A DNA stretch of 64,000 nucleotides from an uncultured delta proteobacterium (GCA_963775425.1 CAVZJB010000011.1:960001-1024000), one strand, 5' to 3'; shown: positions 39,952-52,610, counted from the first letter of the stretch. The notes: generated by a model from the letters alone, not told the origin. Program-made: numbers and translations.

Positions 39952-40728
39952 ATGCGACACGCGCTCTTCTTCGCTGCATCGGCCGCGCTCCTCTCCGCAG
40001 GCGCGGGGCGGGCGCAGGACTGCCGCACGCCCGACGAGGTGCTCGCGGGCATCGTCATCCCCGCCGACGGCACGAGCGGCGTCCCCACCAACGTCACGCC
40101 GTTCGTCGGCACCGGCGGCGCGCTCGAGCTCCTGCTCGTCGGCGACGACGGCAACGAGGTCCCCGCGCAGATCGAGGCCATCGCCGTGGGCGAGCCGGGC
40201 GGCATCGGCGTCGGCGCCGCGGGCACCATCAAGCGCATCGTCCCCGCCGGCGACCTCAACCCCGGTGAGAACATCACCGTCGTCGCCGACGGCGCCGCGG
40301 TCACCCACTTCACCGTCGGCACCGGCCGCGACGACCAGGCACCGCTCGCGCCGGACGCCAGCGTCGGCGAGAGCTGCAACAGCCAGGCAGCCGCCTCCAT
40401 CACCGTCGGCGTCGCCACCGACGACGCCGTGCTCTTCGTCGGCGTCGTCGACGGCCAGCCCACGCTCGGCGCCGGCGCACGCTTCGACGGCGCGTCGTCG
40501 GGCAGCGGACAGCTCGTGGTGTTCGGCAGCGGCTCGGCGGACGTGAACGTCGCCGGCGTCGACCTCGCCGGCAACGTCGGCGCGTCCACGCCCGTCAAGG
40601 TGCAGTTCCCCGACCTCCCCGCGCTGTGCGCGTGCACGTCGTCGTCGTCGGGCCCGGGCGCGCTCGGCGCTGCCGCGGGCGTGGTGCTCGGTGCGGTCTT
40701 CTTGCGCCCGCGGCGTCGAGCGCCCTGA
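39952..40728 (+). CDS. Secreted Ig-like protein with MYXO-CTERM-like anchor
   Basis: Signal peptide, PADGTSGVPTN, DLAGN, and CACTS followed by a hydrophobic stretch and RRR. Confidence 0.78.
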   Translation: MRHALFFAASAALLSAGAGRAQDCRTPDEVLAGIVIPADGTSGVPTNVTPFVGTGGALELLLVGDDGNEVPAQIEAIAVGEPGGIGVGAAGTIKRIVPAGDLNPGENITVVADGAAVTHFTVGTGRDDQAPLAPDASVGESCNSQAAASITVGVATDDAVLFVGVVDGQPTLGAGARFDGASSGSGQLVVFGSGSADVNVAGVDLAGNVGASTPVKVQFPDLPALCACTSSSSGPGALGAAAGVVLGAVFLRPRRRAP

Positions 40729-40753
40729 CGGTCGCGGGGCGTCGCCCCTCGCG

Positions 40754-41773
40754 TCAGGCGGCGGCGCCGTCCGAGGTCTCGGCGGGGGCGCGGCGCAGGA
40801 GCGGGTTCGTGAGCTCCGGGATGTGCGCGGCCCAGTACTTGCGAAAGCGCTGTTGCATCTTGTCGGCGCCGACGAGGACGCGGCGGTGCGACGGGTCGAG
40901 GTCGCGCCACACGGGGAAGTAGTCGTCGGTGGAGCCCTCGAAGATCTTCTTGGCGATGAAGTGGCGCACGACGCCGTCGAAGGCGCGCGCGACCAGCGGC
41001 AGCCGCGGCGTGGCCACGATGAGGTGAAAGAGCGTTTTCTTCGCGCCCTGCGGCAACGGCGCCGCGATGAAGCGCGCGATCTTTCGCTCGTTGAATTCCA
41101 GCGTGCCGAAGATGGCCGAGGCGCCGGCGTAGTCGATGGTGGTGCCGACGCGCGCGCCGTTGTTGAGCGTCTGGCGGATGCGAAAGGCCCAGCGGTGCGG
41201 CTCGTCCGCGATCTCGTCGACGTGGCAGTCCACGAAGTCCACCTTGTGGATGGTGCGGAAGTGCTGCAGGTCCGTGGCGTTTTCCAGGATGTGCAGCGCG
41301 TGCGTCTCGAAGCGCTGGCTCTTGTGCACCACGCCCCAGCCGGCGTCGTGCATCTCCGGCATGTCGGGGAGCGCGTACGACGGCGTGTCGCCGTGGTGCA
41401 CCCAGAGCCAGCCGAGGTGCTCCACCACCGGCACCGTCGAGACCTTCGCGGTCGGCGGGATGCGCTCGCCGTCCTCGAGATAGGGGATGCCGGTGCACGC
41501 CCCGGACGTGGAGAACGTCCACGCGTGGAACGGACACACGATCTCCTCGGCGGCCACGCGCCCGCACGCGAGCGACGCGCCCATGTGCGGACAGAAGCGA
41601 TCCATCGCGCTCAGCGCGCCGCTCCGGGTGCGAAACACGACGAGCTTGCGCCCGCACACGTCGGCCTCGAGGAGCCCGCCGCGCCGCAGGCTCCGCGACG
41701 GGGCCACCGCGTACCAGGCGGCCGGGTAGACGTCGGTGGCGAGCTCGTTGAGGCGCAGGTTGCGGGGCTCCAT
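40754..41773 (-). CDS. Rieske non-heme iron oxygenase alpha subunit (KshA/sterol desaturase-like)
   Basis: CPHMG...CPFH Rieske motif and ENATDLQHFRTIH...DD mononuclear Fe motif. Confidence 0.88.
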   Translation of the reverse strand: MEPRNLRLNELATDVYPAAWYAVAPSRSLRRGGLLEADVCGRKLVVFRTRSGALSAMDRFCPHMGASLACGRVAAEEIVCPFHAWTFSTSGACTGIPYLEDGERIPPTAKVSTVPVVEHLGWLWVHHGDTPSYALPDMPEMHDAGWGVVHKSQRFETHALHILENATDLQHFRTIHKVDFVDCHVDEIADEPHRWAFRIRQTLNNGARVGTTIDYAGASAIFGTLEFNERKIARFIAAPLPQGAKKTLFHLIVATPRLPLVARAFDGVVRHFIAKKIFEGSTDDYFPVWRDLDPSHRRVLVGADKMQQRFRKYWAAHIPELTNPLLRRAPAETSDGAAA

Positions 41774-41906
41774 GCGCTCGCGCTGTAGCGACGCGAGGCG
41801 CCGGCGGCAATCCGCGTGCCGTCGTCGAGCGCGCCTGCGTTCGATCGTGCTTCGCAGGCGGCGTCTCACGTGGCCCCGGGGGACCGCCGCGGCGTACGCT
41901 GCGCGC

Positions 41907-44141
41907 ATGGTCGAGGATCCCGACGAGCTCGGTGCCGGGAGCGCCATCGGCGGCTACGTCGTCGAAGGCGTGCTCGGCCGCGGCGGTGCCGGCGTCGTCT
42001 ACGCCTGCCGAGATCCCGGGCTCGACCGGCGCGTCGCGGTGAAGGTGCTGCGCCGCGACGTCGCCGGCGACGAGAACACCGCGCGCTTCGAGCGGGAGCG
42101 GCGCGCGCTCGCCAAGGTGCAGTCGCCCCACGTCGTCAGCATCTTCTCGGCGGGCGAGTGCTCGGCCGGGACGTTCTTCGCCATGGAGCTCCTCGACGGG
42201 CCGAGCCTCGCCGCCAGGCTCGCGTCGGGGCCTTTGCCCGTGGGCATGGCGGTGTCGGTGGCGCTCGACGTCGCGCGGGGGCTGCGCGACGCCGCGGCCG
42301 CCGGCATCGTCCACCGCGACGTGAAGCCCGCCAACATCGTGCTCACCTCGGCCGGCGCCGTGCTCACCGACTTCGGCCTCGCGCGGCCCGTCGTGGGCGA
42401 CGCGCAGATCACGAGCACCGGCATCATCATGGGGACGCCGCACTACCTCGCGCCCGAGGTCATCCGCGGCGACGCGCCCACGGTGAGCACAGACGCGTAC
42501 GCCCTCGGCGCTGTGATCTACGAGATGCTCACCGGGCGCCCGCCGTTCCACGGCCCGAGCGCCGTGGAGATCCTGTCGGCCCACGTCGACGCCGAGGTCC
42601 CGCCGCTCCTCGACAAGCGCCCGGATTGTCCGATGGCGCTCGCCCAGCTCGTGCACCGCATGCTCGGCAAGAACCCCGTCACCCGGCTGGGCGACGCCGA
42701 CGAGATCATCACGCAGCTCGTGATGCTCCACGCCTCCCTCGACGCGCCCGTCGACGACAGCCTCGACGAGACCCTCGACGCCAGCATCAACGACGACGGG
42801 CTCGCGCTCGTCAGCGGCGCCGTGCTCGTCGCCGACGTCGAGGCCGCCACCGCCACGCCCGCCGCGTCCGCTACGCCCGCCGCGTCCGCTACGCCCACTT
42901 CGCCCACTTCGCCCGCTACGTCTGCTACGTCCGCTACGTCCGCTGCGTCCGTTGCGTCCGTTGGCTCCGGACCCGCGGCGGGAGCGCCGCCCGCGGTGCA
43001 GACCGGCGCGCTCCTCATGGACAGTATGCCCGCGCCCGCGATCTCGCGGACGGCGCCGTTCGTGAGCGACCCGCCCGCCGCCGACCCGCCCGAGCCCGGC
43101 CCGCCGTCGCTCGACTCGTGGGTGAACGCCGCGCCCGGGTTGGCGTCGGCGAGCCCGCCGCCGGAGCTGTCGTCGCCGGCGGTGCCCGCGCCGCCGCGCG
43201 AGGCGTCGTCGCCGGCCGCGGAGGCGCGCACGCCCGACACGTCCCCGGGCGCCGTGCCGGAGAGCGCTTCGCTCGACGCCACCGTGCCGCTCGTCGACGG
43301 CGTCGGGCCCCGCGGCGACACGCTTGCGTCGAGGGCCGCGGTCCTGTGGTCGTCGGCGTCGGCGCGGGCGGAGCCGGCGCTGGCGTTCGTGTCGTCGCTC
43401 CTGTGGCGCGTCGCGTCCGCCGTGCGCCCGCTCCTGCAGCGGGTGGAGCCGGCGTCGCGGGCGGCGTTCGCGCGCTTTCGGGCTTCACCGCCGGCGCTGA
43501 AGGCAGGCATGGCCGCGGCCGTCGTGGTGGTGGCCGTCGTCGTCGTGCTTGTCGCGTCCAGCGGCCCCACGCCGCTCGAGCGCATCGGCAAGGGCGATGC
43601 CGCCGCCGTGCTCGCCGACAACGAAGCGCTCACCGACCGCACGCCCGAGGACGACGTGGTGCGCGGCCACGCACTGTTCGCCCTCGGCCGCTTTGACGAC
43701 GCGTTCGCGTCGTGGGGGAAGGCGGCCGAGCACGGCGCCCCCGACGCCTACGCCCGCTCCGCGGCGTTGGCGCAGCTCGACAACGAGGACGCGGCCGCGC
43801 CGGTGCGCATGTTGCGCGACTGGCCGGAGGCCTCGCTCGACGACGACCTGCGCGCCATGGCCAACGGGCCGCTCGGCTGGCGCGTGCATTGGGCGCTCAC
43901 GCTCCTCGAGGATCGCAAGGCCCTCGGCGACGTCGACGCCGAAGCGATCGCCATCAAGGAGCTCGGCGAAGGCGCCACCTGTGAGCGTCGCCGCGTCGGG
44001 CTCGACCGCCTCGGCCGCCTCGGCAAGACCGACGCGGCCCTCGCGGCCATCGAGCACGCGCGGCGCTCCCGCGGCAACGCGTGCATGCGCAGGGACTTCA
44101 GGGCGGCCGCCGCCGAGGTGCGCAGGCGCCACGCCGGCTGA
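41907..44141 (+). CDS. Membrane Ser/Thr protein kinase with C-terminal TPR/helical domain
   Basis: GRGGAG, VAVK, HRDVKPAN, DFG and GTPHYLAPE motifs, plus a TM helix. Confidence 0.92.
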   Translation: MVEDPDELGAGSAIGGYVVEGVLGRGGAGVVYACRDPGLDRRVAVKVLRRDVAGDENTARFERERRALAKVQSPHVVSIFSAGECSAGTFFAMELLDGPSLAARLASGPLPVGMAVSVALDVARGLRDAAAAGIVHRDVKPANIVLTSAGAVLTDFGLARPVVGDAQITSTGIIMGTPHYLAPEVIRGDAPTVSTDAYALGAVIYEMLTGRPPFHGPSAVEILSAHVDAEVPPLLDKRPDCPMALAQLVHRMLGKNPVTRLGDADEIITQLVMLHASLDAPVDDSLDETLDASINDDGLALVSGAVLVADVEAATATPAASATPAASATPTSPTSPATSATSATSAASVASVGSGPAAGAPPAVQTGALLMDSMPAPAISRTAPFVSDPPAADPPEPGPPSLDSWVNAAPGLASASPPPELSSPAVPAPPREASSPAAEARTPDTSPGAVPESASLDATVPLVDGVGPRGDTLASRAAVLWSSASARAEPALAFVSSLLWRVASAVRPLLQRVEPASRAAFARFRASPPALKAGMAAAVVVVAVVVVLVASSGPTPLERIGKGDAAAVLADNEALTDRTPEDDVVRGHALFALGRFDDAFASWGKAAEHGAPDAYARSAALAQLDNEDAAAPVRMLRDWPEASLDDDLRAMANGPLGWRVHWALTLLEDRKALGDVDAEAIAIKELGEGATCERRRVGLDRLGRLGKTDAALAAIEHARRSRGNACMRRDFRAAAAEVRRRHAG

Positions 44142-44145
44142 CGCG

Positions 44146-45072
44146 TCACCGCGCGGCGGCGTCGTCGCGAGCGCAGGGGCGCGCGCCCGCGGTCATCGCC
44201 TTACGCACCCGGGCGAGCGGCGCGGCGTCGTCGAAGCGGACGTCGTCGCCGTCGGCCACCACGCCGAGGCGGCGAAAGAGCGCGTCGGTGTCGACGTCGC
44301 CGGGGGCGTCGGCGAGGCGAGAGTAGAGCGCGCGCAGGGCGTAGCCGCCGGTGGCGTCGTCGGCGACGGCGACCACCCTGGACGCGGCCCACGAGGCGCG
44401 CCCGTTGCCGCCGGCGTCGAGGAGGCCGCGCACGGCGTCGCGTACGCTCTCGCGATTGTCCGAAGCCGCGCGGATGTCGACGTCGACGAGCAGCCAATAC
44501 AGCGCGCCGCCCCAATACGTGCGCGCCCAGCCCGGCGAGCGATCGAGGCCGTGGTCGAGCGCCCCCGGCCGGCCCTTCGGCATCATCGCCAGCCACGTCG
44601 ACCACACCTGCTTGGCGTCGATGCGACAGGCCTGCGCGCGCGCGACGGGCTCGAGGTACGTCGACAAGCCCTCCTGCATCCAGCGGTGGCGCAGCGCGAG
44701 GTCGGGCATGGCCGCGTGGAACATCTCGTGGACCATCACCCAGTCGTCGTCGAGGACGGCCGGCGGCGTGTCGCGCCCGACGAAGACCTTGAGGAAGCGG
44801 CCGTCCTGGTGCTGGCCGAAGTACACGCGGCCCCCGGGCTCGAGGACCACCGTGATGCGCAGGTCGGGCACGGGGAACTCGCCGAGATAGCCGGCGACCA
44901 CGGCCTCGGAGCGCAACACCCAGCGCTCGATCTCCACGGTGTCGAGCGCGCCGGGCTCGCCGACGACGTCGACGACGAAGTCCGCGTCGTGGGTGTGGAC
45001 CTTGTCCGAGCTCACCGGCGCCGTCGCGCACGCCGCCGCCGCCACCGCCGCGAGCGCTGCCAACGGGCGCAC
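44146..45072 (-). CDS. Gluzincin (M61/M1-like) metallopeptidase lipoprotein
   Basis: Lipobox AAAC, MVHEMFH...WMQEGLSTY and TYWGGAL motifs. Confidence 0.85.
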   Translation of the reverse strand: MRPLAALAAVAAAACATAPVSSDKVHTHDADFVVDVVGEPGALDTVEIERWVLRSEAVVAGYLGEFPVPDLRITVVLEPGGRVYFGQHQDGRFLKVFVGRDTPPAVLDDDWVMVHEMFHAAMPDLALRHRWMQEGLSTYLEPVARAQACRIDAKQVWSTWLAMMPKGRPGALDHGLDRSPGWARTYWGGALYWLLVDVDIRAASDNRESVRDAVRGLLDAGGNGRASWAASRVVAVADDATGGYALRALYSRLADAPGDVDTDALFRRLGVVADGDDVRFDDAAPLARVRKAMTAGARPCARDDAAAR

Positions 45073-45074
45073 GC

Positions 45075-45599
45075 TCAGCCCGGATCGACGAGGGTGACGG
45101 CGAGCGTTGCCACGTCGACGTGGACGTCGACGGCGCGCGGGGCGCCGCCGCAGGAGACACCGGTGTGCACGATGACCTCGGTGGCGCCGTCATCGACCAG
45201 CAGGGGGATTGTCACGGTGGTGGAGCTGGCGAGGTCGGCGCCGTCGAAGCCGAGCTCGCCGTCGACCGTGGCGCCCTCGGCCACCGCCTCGGTCGAGAGG
45301 GTGACGCCGCTGAGCTGGCCGCGCAGCGTGAGGACGAGGTTCAGGTCGGCGCCCAGGACCGTCGCGTTCGCGGACAGGAGCTGGTCGAGGTCGGCGCCGG
45401 GAGAGCACACGGCGGGCTCGGGGAGGAGGTCGACGACGCAGTAGCCGAGGCACGCGGACAGAGATCCTGCAGCGCCCGCGAGCGCCGCCCGCTTCGCCAG
45501 CGTCTCCAGCCGCTGCTGCGCGCGCGCGCGCACGGTCGCCGGCGGCGCGGCCGCGGGAGGCGCGGGGAGCACCTCGGGCATCAGCGTCTTCTTCGTCAC
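45075..45599 (-). CDS. Small exported protein B (candidate radical SAM substrate)
   Basis: GTG start overlaps the upstream stop. RARAQQRLETLAKRAALAGAAGSLSACLGYCVVDLLPEPAVCSP is followed by a beta-sandwich ending in TGVSC...RAV. Confidence 0.75.
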   Translation of the reverse strand: MTKKTLMPEVLPAPPAAAPPATVRARAQQRLETLAKRAALAGAAGSLSACLGYCVVDLLPEPAVCSPGADLDQLLSANATVLGADLNLVLTLRGQLSGVTLSTEAVAEGATVDGELGFDGADLASSTTVTIPLLVDDGATEVIVHTGVSCGGAPRAVDVHVDVATLAVTLVDPG

Positions 45600-46168
45600 G
45601 GGGTGACGTCCTCGGGGGCGGGGCTCAAGAACCCGTTTTGGTCGAGGCCGTCGAGGTTGAACGAGATGCGGACGGCGCGCGCGTCGTCGTCGCAGCTCAC
45701 GCCGGTGTCGATGGTGACGTCGGTGGCGCCTTCGTCGGGGTTGATGTTGAGGGTGACGTTGCGCGAGAGCGCGAGGCTCGCGGCGTCGAACTGGGGATCG
45801 CCGGCGAGGGCGCCGCCGGTGACGGTGAAGACGTCGGCGAGCTCGAGGCCCGTCCGGCCCGCGTTCAGCGAGAACGTGACCACGATGGGCGAGCCCGCCT
45901 GCACCGACGTGAAGAACCAGACGCTGACGTCCTCGGTGTCGGGCGAGCACACGGTGGCCGGGAAGCCCGGCGGCGGGCTCGGCACGGGATCGCAGCCTGC
46001 GCACACCGGCGAGACCGCGGCAGACACCAGGAACGCGGCGCCGCCCTTGAGCGCGGTGAGGCGCCTGCGGGCGCGCTCGCGCGGGTCGACCAGGGGTGCG
46101 CGGGCCGCGGCCGGCGCGGGCTCTCCCCCGGGCGGGCGCGCGCGCTTGTCGTCGTCGCGCCCGCTCAT
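45596..46168 (-). CDS. Small exported protein A (paralogue of B, candidate radical SAM substrate)
   Basis: ATG overlaps the rSAM stop. RERARRRLTALKGGAAFLVSAAVSPVCAGCDPVPSPPPGFPATVCSP...GATDVTIDTGVSC...RAV. Confidence 0.75.
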   Translation of the reverse strand: MSGRDDDKRARPPGGEPAPAAARAPLVDPRERARRRLTALKGGAAFLVSAAVSPVCAGCDPVPSPPPGFPATVCSPDTEDVSVWFFTSVQAGSPIVVTFSLNAGRTGLELADVFTVTGGALAGDPQFDAASLALSRNVTLNINPDEGATDVTIDTGVSCDDDARAVRISFNLDGLDQNGFLSPAPEDVTP

Positions 46169-47808
46169 ACCGTCTCCAGTCGTGCGCGCTGCAGCGGTGT
46201 GGCGACGACGTCGCCGAGCTCGGTCAGCGGGCGGCCACGGCCGATGCGCGCCTGCAGCGTGGAGGCGAGCGCGCGGCACTGCGCCCACAGCGACGCCTCG
46301 GTGGCGCGAAGGCCCGTGGAGAGCTCCCTGACGAACGCGTCGTCGCGCGACCTGGACGGCGCGCCGGCCTTCACGTGATCGATGACGGCGCGCAGCCCGC
46401 GCACGGTGTCCGAGGCGAGCGCGGCGCAGAGGGCCTTGCCCTCGGCGAGCCACGCGGGATCGAAGATGTCGTCGTGGAAGCGGCGCGCGACCTCGACGTC
46501 GAAGCGCATGCCCATGATGTGGTTGGCGAGCGCGCCGGCGGCGAAGTTGCGCGCGTGGAACGCGGCGAGGGCCAGGCGGAAGACGCGGTCGATGGTCTCG
46601 TCGCGCAGGTCATAGTCGTGCTGCAACCAGTCGCCGCGCGCGCGCCCCTCCATCTGCATGCGGTGTAGCAGCGGCGTGCCCGCGTAGAGCTCGACGCGCC
46701 CGAAGTTGAACGGCAGCTCCCGCGCCCACTCCATGAACGCCAGGTTGTCTTCGAGGGACTCGAGCGTGGTGTCCGGGTCGAAGATGAGCATGTTGAAGCA
46801 GGTATAGAGGTCGAGGGCGCGCACGACGTCGATGGCGTGGTGGTTCTGCTTGGGCTTCACCCAGCGACGAAGCGTGACGAGGCCCTGCTCGGAGTCGGTC
46901 TCGACGCCGACGTAGCAGCGGATGCAGCCGAGCCGGTCGCGCAAGACGCGGAACAGGTCCTCGTGCACGTCGGTGGGCCGCGCCTTCACCACGGTGGCGA
47001 AGCGTCCCACCCCGCGACGCTCGAGGGCGTCCGCCAGCGCGTGGAAGCGCTCGAGGTTCGCCTGCTTCGAAGGCAGGAAGAAGTTGTCGTCGTGAAAGAC
47101 GAAGATCTCGATGCCGCGCTCGCGCTGCATCTCCACCATCTCGGCTGCGACGTCGTCCGGCTCGCGCACGCGGTAGCGCTTGCCGGGCAGCGTTTGCTCG
47201 TGCCAGGCGGCGATGCAGCAGAAGGTGCAGTTGGCGTAGCAGCCGCGGCTGCCGACGATGGGCGCGATGCCGTGGCCGAAGCAGCGCGCGGGCTCGCCGC
47301 TGCGGTCCGGCCGCGGGAGCGTGGCGAGGTCGGGGAGGCGCGCGTGCTCGCCGAGGCTCACGCGCGTCCCGCCGTCGACGCGGGAGGCGACGCCGGCGAC
47401 GCCGTCGACGGGGCGATCGTGGGCGACGGCGTCGACGAGCGCGACCAGGGTCTCCTCCGCCTCCTGGCGGCACACCGAGTCCAGCTCGGCGAAATTCTCG
47501 AGGAGCTCCTGCGCGGCGAAGGTGGCGAAGTGGCCGCCGGCGGTGATGTGGCCGCGGTAGCCGCCGCTCCTGAGCGCCATGGCGACGGCGAGCATGTCGA
47601 GCGCGCGCCACTGAAACGCCAGCGACAGCCCGACGACGGCCGGCGGCTCCGGCGCTTCGAGGATCGCCGCCAACACGGCGGCGAAGTGCGTCTCGTGATG
47701 AAACGGCAGGATCTCGGTGCGCACCCCCGCCGCCCGCAGCGACGACGCGAGGTAGCGCAGCGAGAGGTTCTCTTCTATCTCGGGACCGACCAGGGCGACC
47801 CACGGCAT
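46165..47808 (-). CDS. B12-binding domain radical SAM enzyme
   Basis: N-terminal cobalamin-binding fold (EENLSLRYL, HITAGGHFAT), SRGCYANCTFC (CxxxCxxC), FHDDNF, GVET and YAGTPL. Confidence 0.93.
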   Translation of the reverse strand: MPWVALVGPEIEENLSLRYLASSLRAAGVRTEILPFHHETHFAAVLAAILEAPEPPAVVGLSLAFQWRALDMLAVAMALRSGGYRGHITAGGHFATFAAQELLENFAELDSVCRQEAEETLVALVDAVAHDRPVDGVAGVASRVDGGTRVSLGEHARLPDLATLPRPDRSGEPARCFGHGIAPIVGSRGCYANCTFCCIAAWHEQTLPGKRYRVREPDDVAAEMVEMQRERGIEIFVFHDDNFFLPSKQANLERFHALADALERRGVGRFATVVKARPTDVHEDLFRVLRDRLGCIRCYVGVETDSEQGLVTLRRWVKPKQNHHAIDVVRALDLYTCFNMLIFDPDTTLESLEDNLAFMEWARELPFNFGRVELYAGTPLLHRMQMEGRARGDWLQHDYDLRDETIDRVFRLALAAFHARNFAAGALANHIMGMRFDVEVARRFHDDIFDPAWLAEGKALCAALASDTVRGLRAVIDHVKAGAPSRSRDDAFVRELSTGLRATEASLWAQCRALASTLQARIGRGRPLTELGDVVATPLQRARLETV

Positions 47809-47962
47809 GGCGGCGATGGTACCAGGGATCCGGCGCCGCGCCCGCGCCGCGCCGCTCGCGTCGGTGTCCGCGCGCCGGCCTTTTCGGCCGCACGGCCGGC
47901 GCGCCTGGGCCGAACGCCGGCCGACCGTTGAACCCCGGGAGACATCGCGCCAACGTCGCCGC

Positions 47963-49350
<1,388 letters not shown>

Positions 49351-49354
<4 letters not shown>

Positions 49355-50130
49355 GCGCTCGACGCGGCATCCTCGACTGGGGCATCGGCGGCGTCGGCGT
49401 GCTGCGCGCGCTGCGGGAGCGCGGCGTCGACGACGACGTCGTGTACCTCTCCGACGCCGGCGTCGTCCCCTACGGCAAGCAGGGGCGCGCCGCGCTGCGC
49501 ACACGCCTCGCGCAGGTGGCGGCGCTGTTCGCGCGCGAAGGCGCCGCCGACGTCGTCGTCGCCTGCAACGCCGCGAGCTGCGCGCTCGACGGCGACGACG
49601 AGATGTTCGAGACCCCGAGCGGGAGCGTCGTCCTTCACGGCATCGTCCCCGCGGCCGTCGCGGCGGCGGCGGCGTCTCCTGCGCGGCGGATCGGCGTCCT
49701 CGGCGGCGGCCGGACCATCGCTTCGGGCGTGTACCAGGAGCGCTTGCCCGCGGCGGGGGCGCGCGCGTTGCGCTTCGCCGTCGCGCAGCCGCTGTCGGCC
49801 TTCGTGGAGGCGGGCCGCCTCGACGGCGACGACGTCGTCGCGGCCGTCCGCGCTGCCCTCGACGCCCTCGGCGACGTCGACGCGGTGCTCCTCGCGTGCA
49901 CGCACTACCCGGCGCTCGCGCCCGTCTTCGCGCGGCTCGGCGCAGCCCCGCTGCTCGATCCCGCGGCGCACGTCGCCGTCCCGCCCCGCGCCGCGCGCGC
50001 GCGAGGCGCCCCCGGCGCGTCGCTTCGCTTCCTGACCACGGGCGATCCCGCCGCGGCGCGGGTGTCGGCGTCGCGCGCGTTCGGCGTCGACGTCGGCGAC
50101 GCACGGCGCGTCGGGCTCGATTTCGCCTGA
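49351..50130 (+). CDS. Glu/Asp racemase family protein (MurI-like, atypical)
   Basis: GTGA overlap. DWGIGG, PYGKQ, VACNAAS and LACTHYP motifs, with both catalytic Cys present. Confidence 0.85.
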
Positions 50131-50175
50131 GCCGCGGTCGTCGTGGAGCGCGGGCCCGTTCGGCGCGCGGCGGGC

Positions 50176-51561
50176 TCAGGGGTAGTCGGAGACGAACGCC
50201 GGGCGGTGCGCGGACGGGTTCTTCGGGTCCGGGGCGACGCCGAGCGCCCGCCAGTCTTCCTCGACGAAGAGGGCATACTCGTCGCCGAGCTTCACGAGCG
50301 CGAAGTCGTCGAGGGCCGCGTGCTCCTCGGGCAGGTGCGCGACGCGAAAGACGCGCTGTCCTTCGCGCGCGTCGACGAACTGTCGTGCGCGAAGCCCGGT
50401 GCGCTCGGCGAGATAGAGCTCGAGCCCGTGGTGCGCGACGAGGAGGTCGGCGGGTGAGACGAAGCGCTCGATGTCGTGTACGTCGTCGTCGAAGCGGGAC
50501 CAGCGGGGGAACGACCGCGCGAGCCCGTCGTCGAGCACCACCGGCGCGGAGAAGAGCACGAGCGCGGCCGCCGCCGCCGCGAAAGCGCACGGGCCGCGCG
50601 TCGCCACGGCGGCCACGAAAGGCACCCAGATGAGCGGCGCCGCGAGCACGATGCGCCAGGTGAAGCCCGCGGGGCCCGCCAGGAGCCACGGGCACAGCGC
50701 CACCGCCGCGAGCACGACGCCCGCGTCGTAGACCGCGCGCGCCCCGGCGTCCCCCGCGCGGGAACGCCCGCCGGCGTAGGCGGCGACGCCGACGAGCGAC
50801 ACGATGAAGGCGGCGACGAGCGCGAAGCTCTCGCCGGCGACGTGGGCATAGAAGGCGAGGAAGCGCGCCGGCGTCGTCGTGAAGCGCGACCACGCAAGGA
50901 AAAACGGCCCGGCGCGGTCGAAGACCAGGAAGAACAGCCCGAGCATCAGCGCGTTTGCGCCGGCGACGGCGGCCGCGCGTCGCACCGTGAGGCGCCGCAG
51001 GAGCCACGCGAGCGCGAACGCACAGACGAACACGACGGCGAGCTTGTGTGTGACGAGCGCGAGCGCCGCGAGCGCCACGGCGAACGCGAGGCGCGCGCGC
51101 CGGCCGCGCGCGCCGACGACGAGCAGCGCGGCGCCGAGCAGCAGCGCGATGCTCGCGGCCGTCTTTTCGTACTCGAACACAAGCTCGCGCAGCGGCGCCG
51201 ACGACGCGAGCGCCGCCGTCGAGGCGCCGGCCACCGCCCACGCGTGACGCGGCCGCGCCTCATGGACGGCGACGAGCCGGGCGCCGAGCGCCCCGCCGAG
51301 CACCACCAGCAGGGCCCACGTCACCGCCACCGAGGCGCGCAGCGCGTCGAGCGCCGGGACGCCGAGCGCGGTCAGGAGCGCCGGCGGCAGGAACACCGGC
51401 GACCAGTCCTTGAAGTAGAAGCCCGCGCCCGACGCGAGCGACTCGATCTGACGGAGATAGAAGTAACCGTCGACGCCCGGCGGGTCCGGGAAGCGGAGGA
51501 TCGCCGTGAACAGGGCCGCGGCGAGCAGGAGCACCGCCGCTGCAGCGAGCGCCGGCGCCAT
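50176..51561 (-). CDS. Multi-pass membrane protein, GT-C glycosyltransferase-like
   Basis: After TM1 comes the loop PPGVDGYFYLRQI, then about 11 TM helices and a soluble C-terminus. An alternative TTG start at 51591 overlaps the upstream stop. Confidence 0.65.
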   Translation of the reverse strand: MAPALAAAAVLLLAAALFTAILRFPDPPGVDGYFYLRQIESLASGAGFYFKDWSPVFLPPALLTALGVPALDALRASVAVTWALLVVLGGALGARLVAVHEARPRHAWAVAGASTAALASSAPLRELVFEYEKTAASIALLLGAALLVVGARGRRARLAFAVALAALALVTHKLAVVFVCAFALAWLLRRLTVRRAAAVAGANALMLGLFFLVFDRAGPFFLAWSRFTTTPARFLAFYAHVAGESFALVAAFIVSLVGVAAYAGGRSRAGDAGARAVYDAGVVLAAVALCPWLLAGPAGFTWRIVLAAPLIWVPFVAAVATRGPCAFAAAAAALVLFSAPVVLDDGLARSFPRWSRFDDDVHDIERFVSPADLLVAHHGLELYLAERTGLRARQFVDAREGQRVFRVAHLPEEHAALDDFALVKLGDEYALFVEEDWRALGVAPDPKNPSAHRPAFVSDYP

Positions 51562-51587
51562 CGGGACGCGGGCGTGCTCGTCCTGCG

Positions 51588-52532
51588 TCAACGGCAGCGG
51601 TTGGTGTCGAAGTCCATCTTGAGCACCTGCCACGTGCCCGCGAGCTTGACCTCGAGGTGACCGTTGTCCACGCGCCACGCGCCGTCGACCTGCGACCTGC
51701 TCCAGGGGTATTCGCCCGGCTCTTCGACGTCGAGCTGGCCGTTCTCCCCGAAGAAGTACTCGTTCCTGCCGCGCGTGCAGGAGCCGGCGTCGAGGATGCG
51801 GGCGGCGGTGGCGTCACCCGGCGTGCGCGTGTCTTCGAGGCGCTTGAGGACGGCGACGTTTTGCGCGTCGGTCTTCGACAGCGCGCGCATGGTGGGCAGC
51901 GGGTGATACCAGGCGCGCGAGCCGTAGTACGCCTTGAGCCACGGCGTGTGGAAGTCGCCCTTGCCGCGCTGGGCGAACACCGAGTTGCGCAGGAGCTTGA
52001 GCTCGATGAGCGGCTTGTCCCTGAGCGCGTCGACGTCGACGGTTTTGTCGAGCGGCAGGCGGTAGTCGGGCAGCGCCTTCATCTCGTCGGGCGTGAGGCG
52101 CGTGATGTGCGCGAGGTCGACCGTGCGCGCCCCCGCGTCGCCACCCATGGCGTGCTCGCGCTTCAGGATGGCGCGCGCGTTGTCGAGGTCGACGCCGGCG
52201 ACGACCTTCTCCGGTTTGTCGAGCGCCTTGTACCAGGAGCGCGACTCGAAGTAGTCGCGCAGCCAGCGCGTCTTGAACGGCACGCCGTACTGCGCGTAGA
52301 TGGAATTGCGCATCAGCTTGAGCTTGACGAGGGGCGCACCGGTGAGCGCGCCTTGCGCGAGCGGCTTGCCGAGCGGCACTTTCACGTCGGGCAGCGCGGC
52401 GAGCTGCGCGCGCGTGAGCGCGTCCGCCGCCGCCGCGGTCGCGGGCCACGACGCGCCCTCGTCGCCGCGCGCGCCCCCGGCGCCGAAGACGAAGACGGCA
52501 GCCACGAGGAGCGCGCGCAGGGAATTCGTCAT
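51588..52532 (-). CDS. Exported protein with two YARHG domains
   Basis: LKLMRNSIYAQYG.PFKTRWLRDYFESRSWY and LKLLRNSVFAQRG...WLKAYYGSRAWY. Confidence 0.85.
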   Translation of the reverse strand: MTNSLRALLVAAVFVFGAGGARGDEGASWPATAAAADALTRAQLAALPDVKVPLGKPLAQGALTGAPLVKLKLMRNSIYAQYGVPFKTRWLRDYFESRSWYKALDKPEKVVAGVDLDNARAILKREHAMGGDAGARTVDLAHITRLTPDEMKALPDYRLPLDKTVDVDALRDKPLIELKLLRNSVFAQRGKGDFHTPWLKAYYGSRAWYHPLPTMRALSKTDAQNVAVLKRLEDTRTPGDATAARILDAGSCTRGRNEYFFGENGQLDVEEPGEYPWSRSQVDGAWRVDNGHLEVKLAGTWQVLKMDFDTNRCR

Positions 52533-52610
52533 GGCCGCGAGCGTAGCCGCGGCACGGGCGCGGGTGAACACCGAACCCGCGCGCACGCCGCGGCGCGTCC
52601 GCGGCCGGGG

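Follow-up and report, generated by a model that had tools for sequence, protein, structure and literature searches.

A B12-Binding Radical SAM Enzyme and Adjoining Signal-Peptide-Bearing Proteins: A Candidate Two-Component Modification Cassette in an Uncultured Delta Proteobacterium and Its Relatives

Organization of the Locus

The window analysed in this work is the whole stretch of 64,000 nucleotides (nt) from an uncultured delta proteobacterium (GCA_963775425.1, CAVZJB010000011.1:960001-1024000), with positions counted from its first letter. It contains a candidate protein-modification cassette formed by the gene of a B12-binding (class B) radical S-adenosylmethionine (SAM) enzyme, hereafter rSAM, and by the genes of two small proteins, here called precursors A and B. 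A gene encoding a protein with the motif HEMFH follows them. The open reading frames (ORFs) were read from the DNA and lie head to tail, all on the minus strand (Table 1). The rSAM and A genes share the junction ATGA at 46165-46168, those of A and B share GTGA at 45596-45599, and B is separated from the HEMFH gene by a 2-nt gap at 45073-45074 (TGA-gc-GTG), so that the tight coupling of four genes described in the initial annotation of this DNA is exact. The two small proteins had been regarded there as paralogues, which BLASTP bore out (31% identity over 146 amino acids (aa), E 1e-13).

Table 1. Features of the locus, with positions in the window.
Feature	Position	Strand	Remarks
B12-binding (class B) radical SAM (rSAM) gene	46165-47808	(-)	547 aa; putative modifying enzyme
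CX3CX2C radical SAM cluster motif	47218-47241	(-)	C190, C194, C197 (and C198) invariant in 62 aligned orthologues
Precursor A (small A)	45596-46168	(-)	190 aa; subtype without N-box; start overlaps rSAM stop (ATGA)
Precursor A basic helix (residues 30-41, R-E-R-A-R-R-R-L-T-A-L-K)	46046-46081	(-)	Aligned with the family R-x-R helix
Precursor A hydrophobic run ending in Cys59	45992-46045	(-)	C59 invariant in alignment A1
Precursor A core variant D-P-V-P-S-P-P-P, directly after Cys59	45968-45991	(-)	Same layout as in L012, L074, L087
Precursor B (small B)	45075-45599	(-)	174 aa; canonical subtype; start overlaps stop of A (GTGA)
Precursor B N-box L-M-P-E-V-L-P-A-P (residues 6-14)	45558-45584	(-)	E9, L11, P12, P14 invariant in 44 sequences
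Precursor B basic helix (residues 22-38), candidate recognition element	45486-45536	(-)	R26 invariant; contacts in complex model
Precursor B hydrophobic run and lipobox-like L-S-A-C (Cys50)	45450-45485	(-)	Cys at least 90% conserved in 44 sequences; PROSITE-like lipobox fits
Precursor B core G-Y-C-V-V-D-L-L-P-E-P (residues 52-62), candidate modification site	45414-45446	(-)	D57, P60, P62 invariant
Precursor B C-terminal immunoglobulin (Ig)-like sandwich	45075-45390	(-)	Two invariant Cys 85 residues apart
HEMFH protein	44146-45072	(-)	308 aa; lipoprotein-like N-terminus; adjoins B, not a conserved part of the cassette

Conservation of the Enzyme and Its Neighbours

The set of rSAM orthologues comprised 84 loci. 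Four came from species-representative genomes (55-64% identity, titled Myxococcota or "proteobacterium" metagenome-assembled genomes) and 80 from a scan of metagenome contigs, in which the best 80 of 272 rSAM relatives were kept (50-67% identity). A profile, A1, was built from 8 sequences (A, B, a third paralogue of the same genome, and five neighbours taken at the four loci of species-representative genomes) and was searched against all stop-to-stop frames of the 84 loci. A match was counted as downstream when its E was up to 1e-3 and it started within 700 nt on the same strand; 69 loci had at least 300 nt beyond the rSAM stop.

A precursor adjoins the rSAM gene in 67 of these 69 loci. The A1 match is directly downstream in 63, of which 59 are metagenome loci unused in the profile, and directly upstream in two (L028 and L051), where canonical precursors end at the rSAM start. 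In L018 and L035 the motifs are present and fall just short of the A1 threshold, while in L029 and L071 no precursor was found beside the enzyme and the downstream genes are unrelated. All 82 A1 matches in the 649,305 bases of the 84 loci are beside the rSAM gene and on its strand, with one to three profile-match segments after each enzyme. Among the first downstream motif-bearing ORFs, 39 of 60 overlap the rSAM stop by 4 nt.

As a second, independent sample, 400 genomes of the phylum were used. Fifteen of them carry an rSAM orthologue (14 of 172 in one family, one of four in another), and none was found in the 10 genomes of the window's own GTDB family. A motif-bearing neighbour was present in 13 of the 14 loci with downstream DNA; the fourteenth, L101, failed the motif pattern. 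The initial annotation had proposed that a gene-neighbourhood analysis be made to see whether such small proteins are consistently adjacent to rSAM homologues, and in both samples they are. The B12-binding radical SAM enzyme and the leader-bearing paralogues thus stand as a conserved functional pair. It was also possible to see that the cassette is patchy (0/10 genomes of the window's family vs 14/172 of another), a distribution that would fit transfer; nothing mobile was seen adjacent to it.

The presence and absence of the two partners also co-vary at the genome level. A further profile, A4, gave 8 matches in five rSAM-positive genomes, seven of them adjoining the enzyme and the eighth marginal, and in 40 relatives without an rSAM orthologue it gave a single marginal match (E 2.7e-4). 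Two motif patterns had no match in 485,794 background six-frame residues; they were written after seeing the sequences, and this count is descriptive only. That the genes are adjacent without functional coupling, by chance or shared regulation, is barely credible in view of a pair kept in nearly every locus, mostly by 4-nt overlaps, of its joint occurrence among genomes and of the complex model described below, which passes its controls.

When 60 relatives were searched for rSAM, only two distant homologues were found (L013 and L014, 37-38% identity). Because neither of these has a precursor-like neighbour, the link between rSAM and precursor is a property of a clade and extends down to about 44% identity (L107). 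The homologue of L014 (G047:C92, 7152-9530(-), 37% identity) has 792 aa with a long C-terminal extension, and a signal-peptide protein of another kind comes after it. The most distant orthologue still accompanied by a partner is that of L107 (G281:C42, 44% identity). In this partner the core, A-V-D-P-A-P-P-P, comes after a lipoprotein signal that is short and plain, and the N-terminal extension is lacking, a layout which hints that the core may be the older, essential element.

The Radical SAM Enzyme

Both features of class B enzymes were found in rSAM, namely the CX3CX2C motif and an N-terminal Rossmann-like B12-binding domain, cobalamin binding itself being predicted. The Pfam B12-binding domain (PF02310) is matched at residues 12-125 with 56.9 bits (cut-off 32.1), and Radical_SAM with 40.1 bits (cut-off 29.5). 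The B12 domain starts directly at the N-terminus and the protein has no signal peptide. No domain of the RRE type was detected in the system. Against NCBIfam, all 22 families listed, HpnR, ApyD, BchE, HpnJ, TIGR03975, and PhpK among them, were below their curated cut-offs. The best were HpnR (100.6 bits, cut-off 650) and then ApyD (84.4 bits, cut-off 750), and TIGR03975, the C-methyltransferase subfamily of peptides made on the ribosome and modified after translation (RiPPs), gave 51.5 bits (cut-off 281.85). By these profile scores, rSAM belongs to none of the curated NCBIfam class B families.

The AlphaFold2 model of rSAM (predicted local distance difference test, pLDDT, 91.1; predicted template-modelling score, pTM, 0.90) shows the B12 Rossmann domain and a partial barrel; four long helices make up the C-terminal region at 404-522. 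The closest solved folds to this model are OxsB, TsrM, MgmA, CysS, AprD4, and TokK, at 16-20% identity. With Foldseek, the match to OxsB had E 1.8e-21 and, by query, a template-modelling (TM) score of 0.65, and E was about 1e-17 for TsrM, MgmA, and CysS; the sequence profile of rSAM also matches OxsB, at 8.5e-23.

Architecture of the Precursors

Forty-four precursors were aligned with B as reference numbering, and the mean column identity was 17%. Conservation is limited to four elements: an N-terminal box (N-box), a helix, a Cys, and the core. In B numbering, E9, L11, P12, P14, R26, D57, P60, and P62 never vary, and conservation reaches at least 90% at C50, V55, and V56. A canonical precursor begins with the N-box, (K/R)-x-L-x-L-M-P-E-V-L-P-x-P, which is followed after 8-20 residues by a basic helix, roughly P-R-x-R-V/T-x-x-H-M/L-x-R-L-L. 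Then come an uncharged Ala-rich run (median 13 residues and interquartile range 12-14 over the 127 of 157 representatives in which it was measured), a Cys whose median position is 50, a spacer that takes 3 to 74 residues to reach the core, and the core (Y/F)-(G/A)-V-V-D-P-(L/M)-P-x-P in one to three copies. What remains is usually a domain starting with another conserved Cys, and it varies or is absent. The core is repeated two or three times in L031, L064, L077, P0129, P0152, and P0160, and some precursors end a few residues past the last core (121 aa in L031, 142 aa in L030). P0101 (803 aa), with 12 "core" stretches, was left out of the counts as an unrelated repeat protein.

Precursor A and the neighbours in L012, L074, and L087 form a subtype without N-box in which the core comes directly after the Cys (C-D-P-x-P-x-P). 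This layout recurs in representatives that have N-T-A-C (10 cases) or N-A-A-C (2 cases) in front of the core. In a third subtype, L077 and L093, the core reads V-V-C-D-P-L-P-P-P. A matches the profile A4 at E 2.8e-13 and B at E 2.1e-33. The motifs listed for the small proteins in the initial annotation are real and most are family-wide, but only one Cys of the segment taken to have two is conserved; likewise, the Pro-rich start ascribed to both proteins is a defined box in B and is absent from A. In an alignment of 8 relatives, the invariant positions were the Cys after the hydrophobic stretch, one Pro of the Pro-rich segment, and the Cys residues of "VCSP" and "TGVSC".

Two further observations were made on these elements. 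The N-box (M-P-E-V-L-P-A-P) and the core of B (V-V-D-L-L-P-E-P; family consensus V-V-D-P-L-P-P-P) have [E/D]-x-L-P-x-P in common, and from this similarity the N-box could be a second site or a pseudo-substrate. In 101 of 141 representatives the invariant Asp comes 1 or 6-7 residues after the Cys, which may matter beyond lipidation.

The family is not small and has no annotation. Out of 1.84 billion, the precursor profile found 463 cluster representatives when E was allowed up to 1e-3 and 168 when the limit was 1e-10. An annotated search returned 13 proteins, whose source names, where given, were "hypothetical protein" and none of which had a precomputed Pfam domain. Pfam and NCBIfam gave nothing significant on A, B, and 8 canonical relatives, and a feature search of the ESM Atlas for P0019 had a best score of 0.79, below the useful range.

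The same genome provides a natural control. A third paralogue, on contig 7 (66630-67127(-); L006:8607-9113), is a beta-sandwich protein of 168 aa whose lipoprotein signal is short and ordinary. N-box, helix motif, and core are all missing from it, there is no rSAM nearby, and its match to the precursor profile is confined to the sandwich part (positions 63-162). Considering that this paralogue lacks leader, core, and enzyme alike, it is the leader and the core, and not the sandwich, that are tied to rSAM. In the AlphaFold2 model of B (pLDDT 89.4) a helix at 23-50 is followed by the extended core and by the beta-sandwich at 71-171. For the sandwich, Foldseek pointed weakly to the N-terminal domain of DsbD, which is periplasmic (E 2.7e-4, TM by target about 0.46-0.5), and a structure search of the Atlas gave a second weak likeness to this domain (TM 0.42-0.54).

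Export Signals

The basic helix, the 13-residue uncharged run, and the Cys resemble together a lipoprotein signal preceded by some 24 additional residues. The lipobox, written as a PROSITE-like pattern, fits 27 of the 44 aligned precursors and 81 of the 157 representatives. In a subgroup (L033, L039, L053, and L062, for example) the residue before the conserved Cys is Q, H, or N, as in L-S-L-Q-C-G-Y-G-V-V-D-P, and the lipobox does not fit. L054, which has no Cys before the core, carries A-H-A, a motif of the type recognised by signal peptidase I. In the precursors with long spacers, Ser/Thr/Pro/Ala-rich tethers come after the Cys. Judging by these signals, the precursors are probably exported, and most of them lipidated.

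Two other assignments were considered and set aside. A transmembrane anchor is unlikely, the uncharged run of 12-14 residues having the length of a signal peptide and not that of a membrane span. A signal of the twin-arginine translocation (Tat) type is not a family feature; A has R-R-R, B has none, and many members have Q-R, R-N, or E-R there.

Predicted Docking of Precursor B on rSAM

The complex was predicted with the 62-row alignment of rSAM, residues 1-70 of B with the 44-row alignment, a 4Fe-4S cluster, and SAM. The ipSAE score was 0.86 (runs 0.85, 0.87, and 0.86), and the best control reached 0.46. The mark used for this score was attained by 58 of 80 solved complexes and by 2 of 110 mismatched pairs, counts which hold only roughly here, the calibration having been made without ligands or user alignments. 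At least 52% of contacts are common to the runs, and the partner pLDDT is 52 or more.

The lowest-error contacts are made by the helix of B (residues 20-38) with residues 39-43, 70-78, 101-106, and 393-395 of rSAM, on the side of the B12 domain. Residues 58-63 of B, in the core, are placed against residues 373, 418, 421-422, and 429, which belong to the barrel and the C-terminal part. Ten of the 21 interface residues of rSAM are invariant or at least 90% conserved in the 62 orthologues (D71, L73, A74, A78, D105, F106, E373, D393, N421, and F422). The prediction of an rSAM-leader complex had been proposed with the initial annotation, in which the basic helix was the recognition element and the segment rich in Asp and Pro the likely target; in the model the helix docks on the enzyme, and the segment is the most conserved part of the precursors and is sometimes repeated. 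The model supports, without proving it, an arrangement in which the helix would be the handle and the core the substrate. On the whole of this evidence, it is likely that the small proteins are substrates of rSAM, and the core is, with somewhat less assurance, the probable site of modification.

The same docking may be read in another way, with the small proteins as membrane-anchored adaptors that, by a cytoplasmic N-terminus, draw rSAM to the membrane to modify a lipid or other small molecule there. The best NCBIfam likeness is to a hopanoid methylase (HpnR), far below threshold, and HpnJ and a lipid-biosynthesis family were also listed; moreover, the confident docking involves the N-terminal helix, and AlphaFold2 draws residues 23-50 of B as one long helix. 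Nevertheless, we consider such adaptors quite unlikely. The hydrophobic run is too short to span a membrane, no lipid or other biosynthetic gene is common to the loci, and the core too touches conserved residues of rSAM in the complex model, while the paralogues in tandem, the repetition of the core, and the free variation of the C-terminal parts are more in keeping with substrates.

If the small proteins are substrates, the modification might still be elsewhere, on the N-box or at the conserved Cys and its neighbourhood, altering signal-peptide processing or lipidation. The N-box is as invariant as the core and similar to it in sequence, and the Cys keeps its short distance to the invariant Asp in most representatives and is kept even where the lipobox rule fails. 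However, the N-box is absent from A and from the subtype of L012, L074, and L087, which are still beside an rSAM gene; the neighbour of the L107 enzyme has the core and only a short plain signal; the spacer from Cys to core is up to 74 residues long; and the complex model puts the core, and not the N-box, at conserved pocket residues. A site other than the core is therefore unlikely in our judgement.

The HEMFH Peptidase and Other Neighbouring Genes

The initial annotation had counted a gluzincin-like peptidase, the HEMFH protein, among the components of the system, and this part of it did not hold. A version with four genes, in which the metallopeptidase trims the modified proteins, has in its favour that the gene is 2 nt from B on the same strand, that the product has an HExxH motif and a lipoprotein-like N-terminus, by which it would share a compartment with the exported precursors, and that a secreted prolyl oligopeptidase is mentioned for one cluster in the study of DAG-RiPPs (PMC13056109). 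On the other side, no homologue was found by tblastn in the 84 orthologue loci, and no peptidase was shared among the clustered neighbours. Members of the HEMFH family were found in 9 of 20 relatives (30-42% identity), none with an rSAM orthologue, and twice more in the window's own genome as paralogues. The protein has no Pfam or NCBIfam family, the sole lead being M61 on 14% of one look-alike cluster. An integral role of the peptidase is accordingly improbable. Since it is missing from all 84 loci and occurs without rSAM, it is a local neighbour and not part of the cassette, which consists of rSAM and the precursor gene or genes.

Other neighbours in the window were also tried as partners, and each was found in 0/84 loci (the SAM methyltransferase at 47963-49354, an Asp/Glu racemase, a Rieske oxygenase, a membrane protein, and a YARHG protein). 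Matches to Ser/Thr kinases were scattered over 8 of the 84 loci. De novo clustering of all neighbour ORFs gave no other shared gene, and only antisense ORFs inside rSAM and kinases recurred. The conserved unit is the class B radical SAM enzyme with one to three precursor genes only.

As for the surroundings, a divergently transcribed gene at 47807/47963-49354 (+) has a class I SAM methyltransferase domain (Methyltransf_11, 1.1e-22), and its N-terminal half of about 250 aa has no assignment. At 51588-52586 (-) there are two YARHG domains (4.7e-23) with a signal-like N-terminus, unrelated to the cassette. An Rfam scan of 40000-52000 found no family. In 43900-48100 no promoter-like site was found, and a terminator scan gave one terminator-like site, on the opposite strand and at chance level.

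Discussion

Taking these results together, we favour, with fair though not strong confidence, a two-component cassette in which the core is modified in the cytoplasm before export. The cytoplasmic rSAM would bind the newly made precursor through the basic helix, which would double as the n-region of the signal peptide, and would modify the core (Y/F)-G-V-V-D-P-L/M-P-x-P past the signal peptide, the likeliest reaction being C-methylation of an unactivated carbon. The precursor would then be exported (Sec/Lsp), and most members would be processed as lipoproteins at the conserved Cys. The N-terminal extension, the helix, and the signal peptide would be removed by signal peptidase in one cut, so the system could do without a protease or transporter of its own. 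What results would be a protein or peptide, lipid-anchored or secreted, that bears the modified proline-rich motif close to its N-terminus; in this genome, the motif would precede an Ig-like beta-sandwich with two conserved Cys.

With regard to the chemistry, most characterised class B enzymes carry out C-methylation of an unactivated carbon. Because of this, with ApyD as an example, C-methylation is the likeliest reaction here, and by this analogy it is a serious candidate which we stop just short of calling probable.

Several points weigh against the proposal. The metagenome loci are the best 80 of 272, so that its scope is the closer relatives, and the contigs are not independent, the rSAM DNA being non-identical in 66 of 69. 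The homologues L013 and L014 stand without a precursor-like neighbour. The enzyme is far from every named family (the best NCBIfam score is 100.6 vs 650, and identity to solved class B structures is 16-20%), and class B enzymes catalyse reactions other than methylation too. Of the 44 aligned precursors, 17 fail the lipobox pattern, many of them with Q, H, or N before the Cys, and two precursors (L042 and L054) have no Cys before the core; therefore lipidation is not general. In the complex, whose score is only loosely calibrated, the pLDDT of the partner is only about 53, and the N-box, though invariant, made no confident contact.

A more specific version of the two-component cassette may be advanced as a tentative proposal, which we hold with less confidence than the parts given above. 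It is a composite "leader-plus-signal" in which the B12 domain would clamp the n-region helix and delay Sec until the V-V-D-P-L-P-x-P core is modified, after which signal peptidase II (or I) would remove leader and signal. This would put a new radical modification, probably C-methyl, on surface or periplasmic lipoproteins of Myxococcota and would be the first radical SAM branch of RiPP-lipoprotein hybrids. The logic of such a checkpoint is comparable to that of Tat signal-peptide chaperones.

It is also known that a cytoplasmic radical SAM enzyme can modify a protein bound for the periplasm before its export, as anaerobic sulfatase-maturing enzymes and QhpD (with QhpC) do. Those enzymes are of the SPASM/twitch type, lack B12, and have other motifs and another chemistry. 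General searches gave no likeness to them, and no dedicated test was made. Among the class B radical SAM enzymes that act as C-methyltransferases in RiPP pathways are PoyC and the bottromycin methyltransferases. Another enzyme of the class, ApyD, is described as acting by beta-methylation of Tyr (PMC10635010). Like such RiPP enzymes, rSAM joins a B12-binding domain to a radical SAM core, has an adjacent gene for what would be its peptide or protein substrate, and is encoded in overlap with it. Unlike them, it scores far below the cut-offs of ApyD and TIGR03975, its leader is placed on the B12 domain in the model, and its putative substrates have signal peptides. OxsB, TsrM, MgmA, CysS, and TokK have the overall fold in common with rSAM, at 16-18% identity and with unrelated substrates; MgmA, the glutamine methylase of methyl-coenzyme M reductase, acts on a protein too.

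In DAG-RiPPs (DybA/DybH and NedA/NedBC), the precursor has a lipoprotein signal; MNIO enzymes modify it in the cytoplasm, and lipidation follows, according to the study that describes them (PMC13056109). The likeness lies in a precursor with a lipoprotein-type or signal peptidase I-type signal, a putative one here, beside a cytoplasmic modifying enzyme without signal peptide; in modification before export with the general lipoprotein pathway as the maturation and export machinery, as proposed here; and in a short cluster without dedicated protease or transporter, whose substrates range from peptides to whole proteins. The differences are that the enzyme here is a B12 radical SAM and not an MNIO, as in all the members described there, that recognition is apparently by a conserved N-terminal extension and a helix upstream of or within the signal peptide, and that the core motif is another. 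The cassette thus appears to work like a DAG-RiPP and is not a member of the described set, because its enzyme is a B12 radical SAM and not an MNIO. Only MNIO neighbourhoods were mined in that study, whose main text does not contain "radical", "rSAM", or "B12"; it allows that RiPP-lipoproteins beyond MNIOs may exist, probably leader-independent or with follower peptides (PMC13056109).

Searches of the literature on B12 or cobalamin radical SAM, RiPP, Myxococc-, lipoprotein precursors, lipobox, and the motif strings found no description of the cassette. The rSAM clade and the precursor family are both unannotated and would make up a radical SAM branch of signal-peptide-bearing RiPP and protein-modification systems. 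The present analysis corrects the annotation of the locus, in that the adjoining peptidase is not counted in the system, and defines a precursor family for which there is no Pfam or NCBIfam model. It also provides a compact, testable pair of enzyme and putative substrate in which to look for a new radical modification of a motif rich in Val, Asp, and Pro, and it suggests a new manner of substrate recognition, by a signal-peptide n-region on the B12 domain. If the proposal is true, RiPP-type chemistry routed through the general lipoprotein pathway, which so far relies on one enzyme family (MNIO), would gain the B12 radical SAM enzymes, and whole folded proteins would be added to its substrates.

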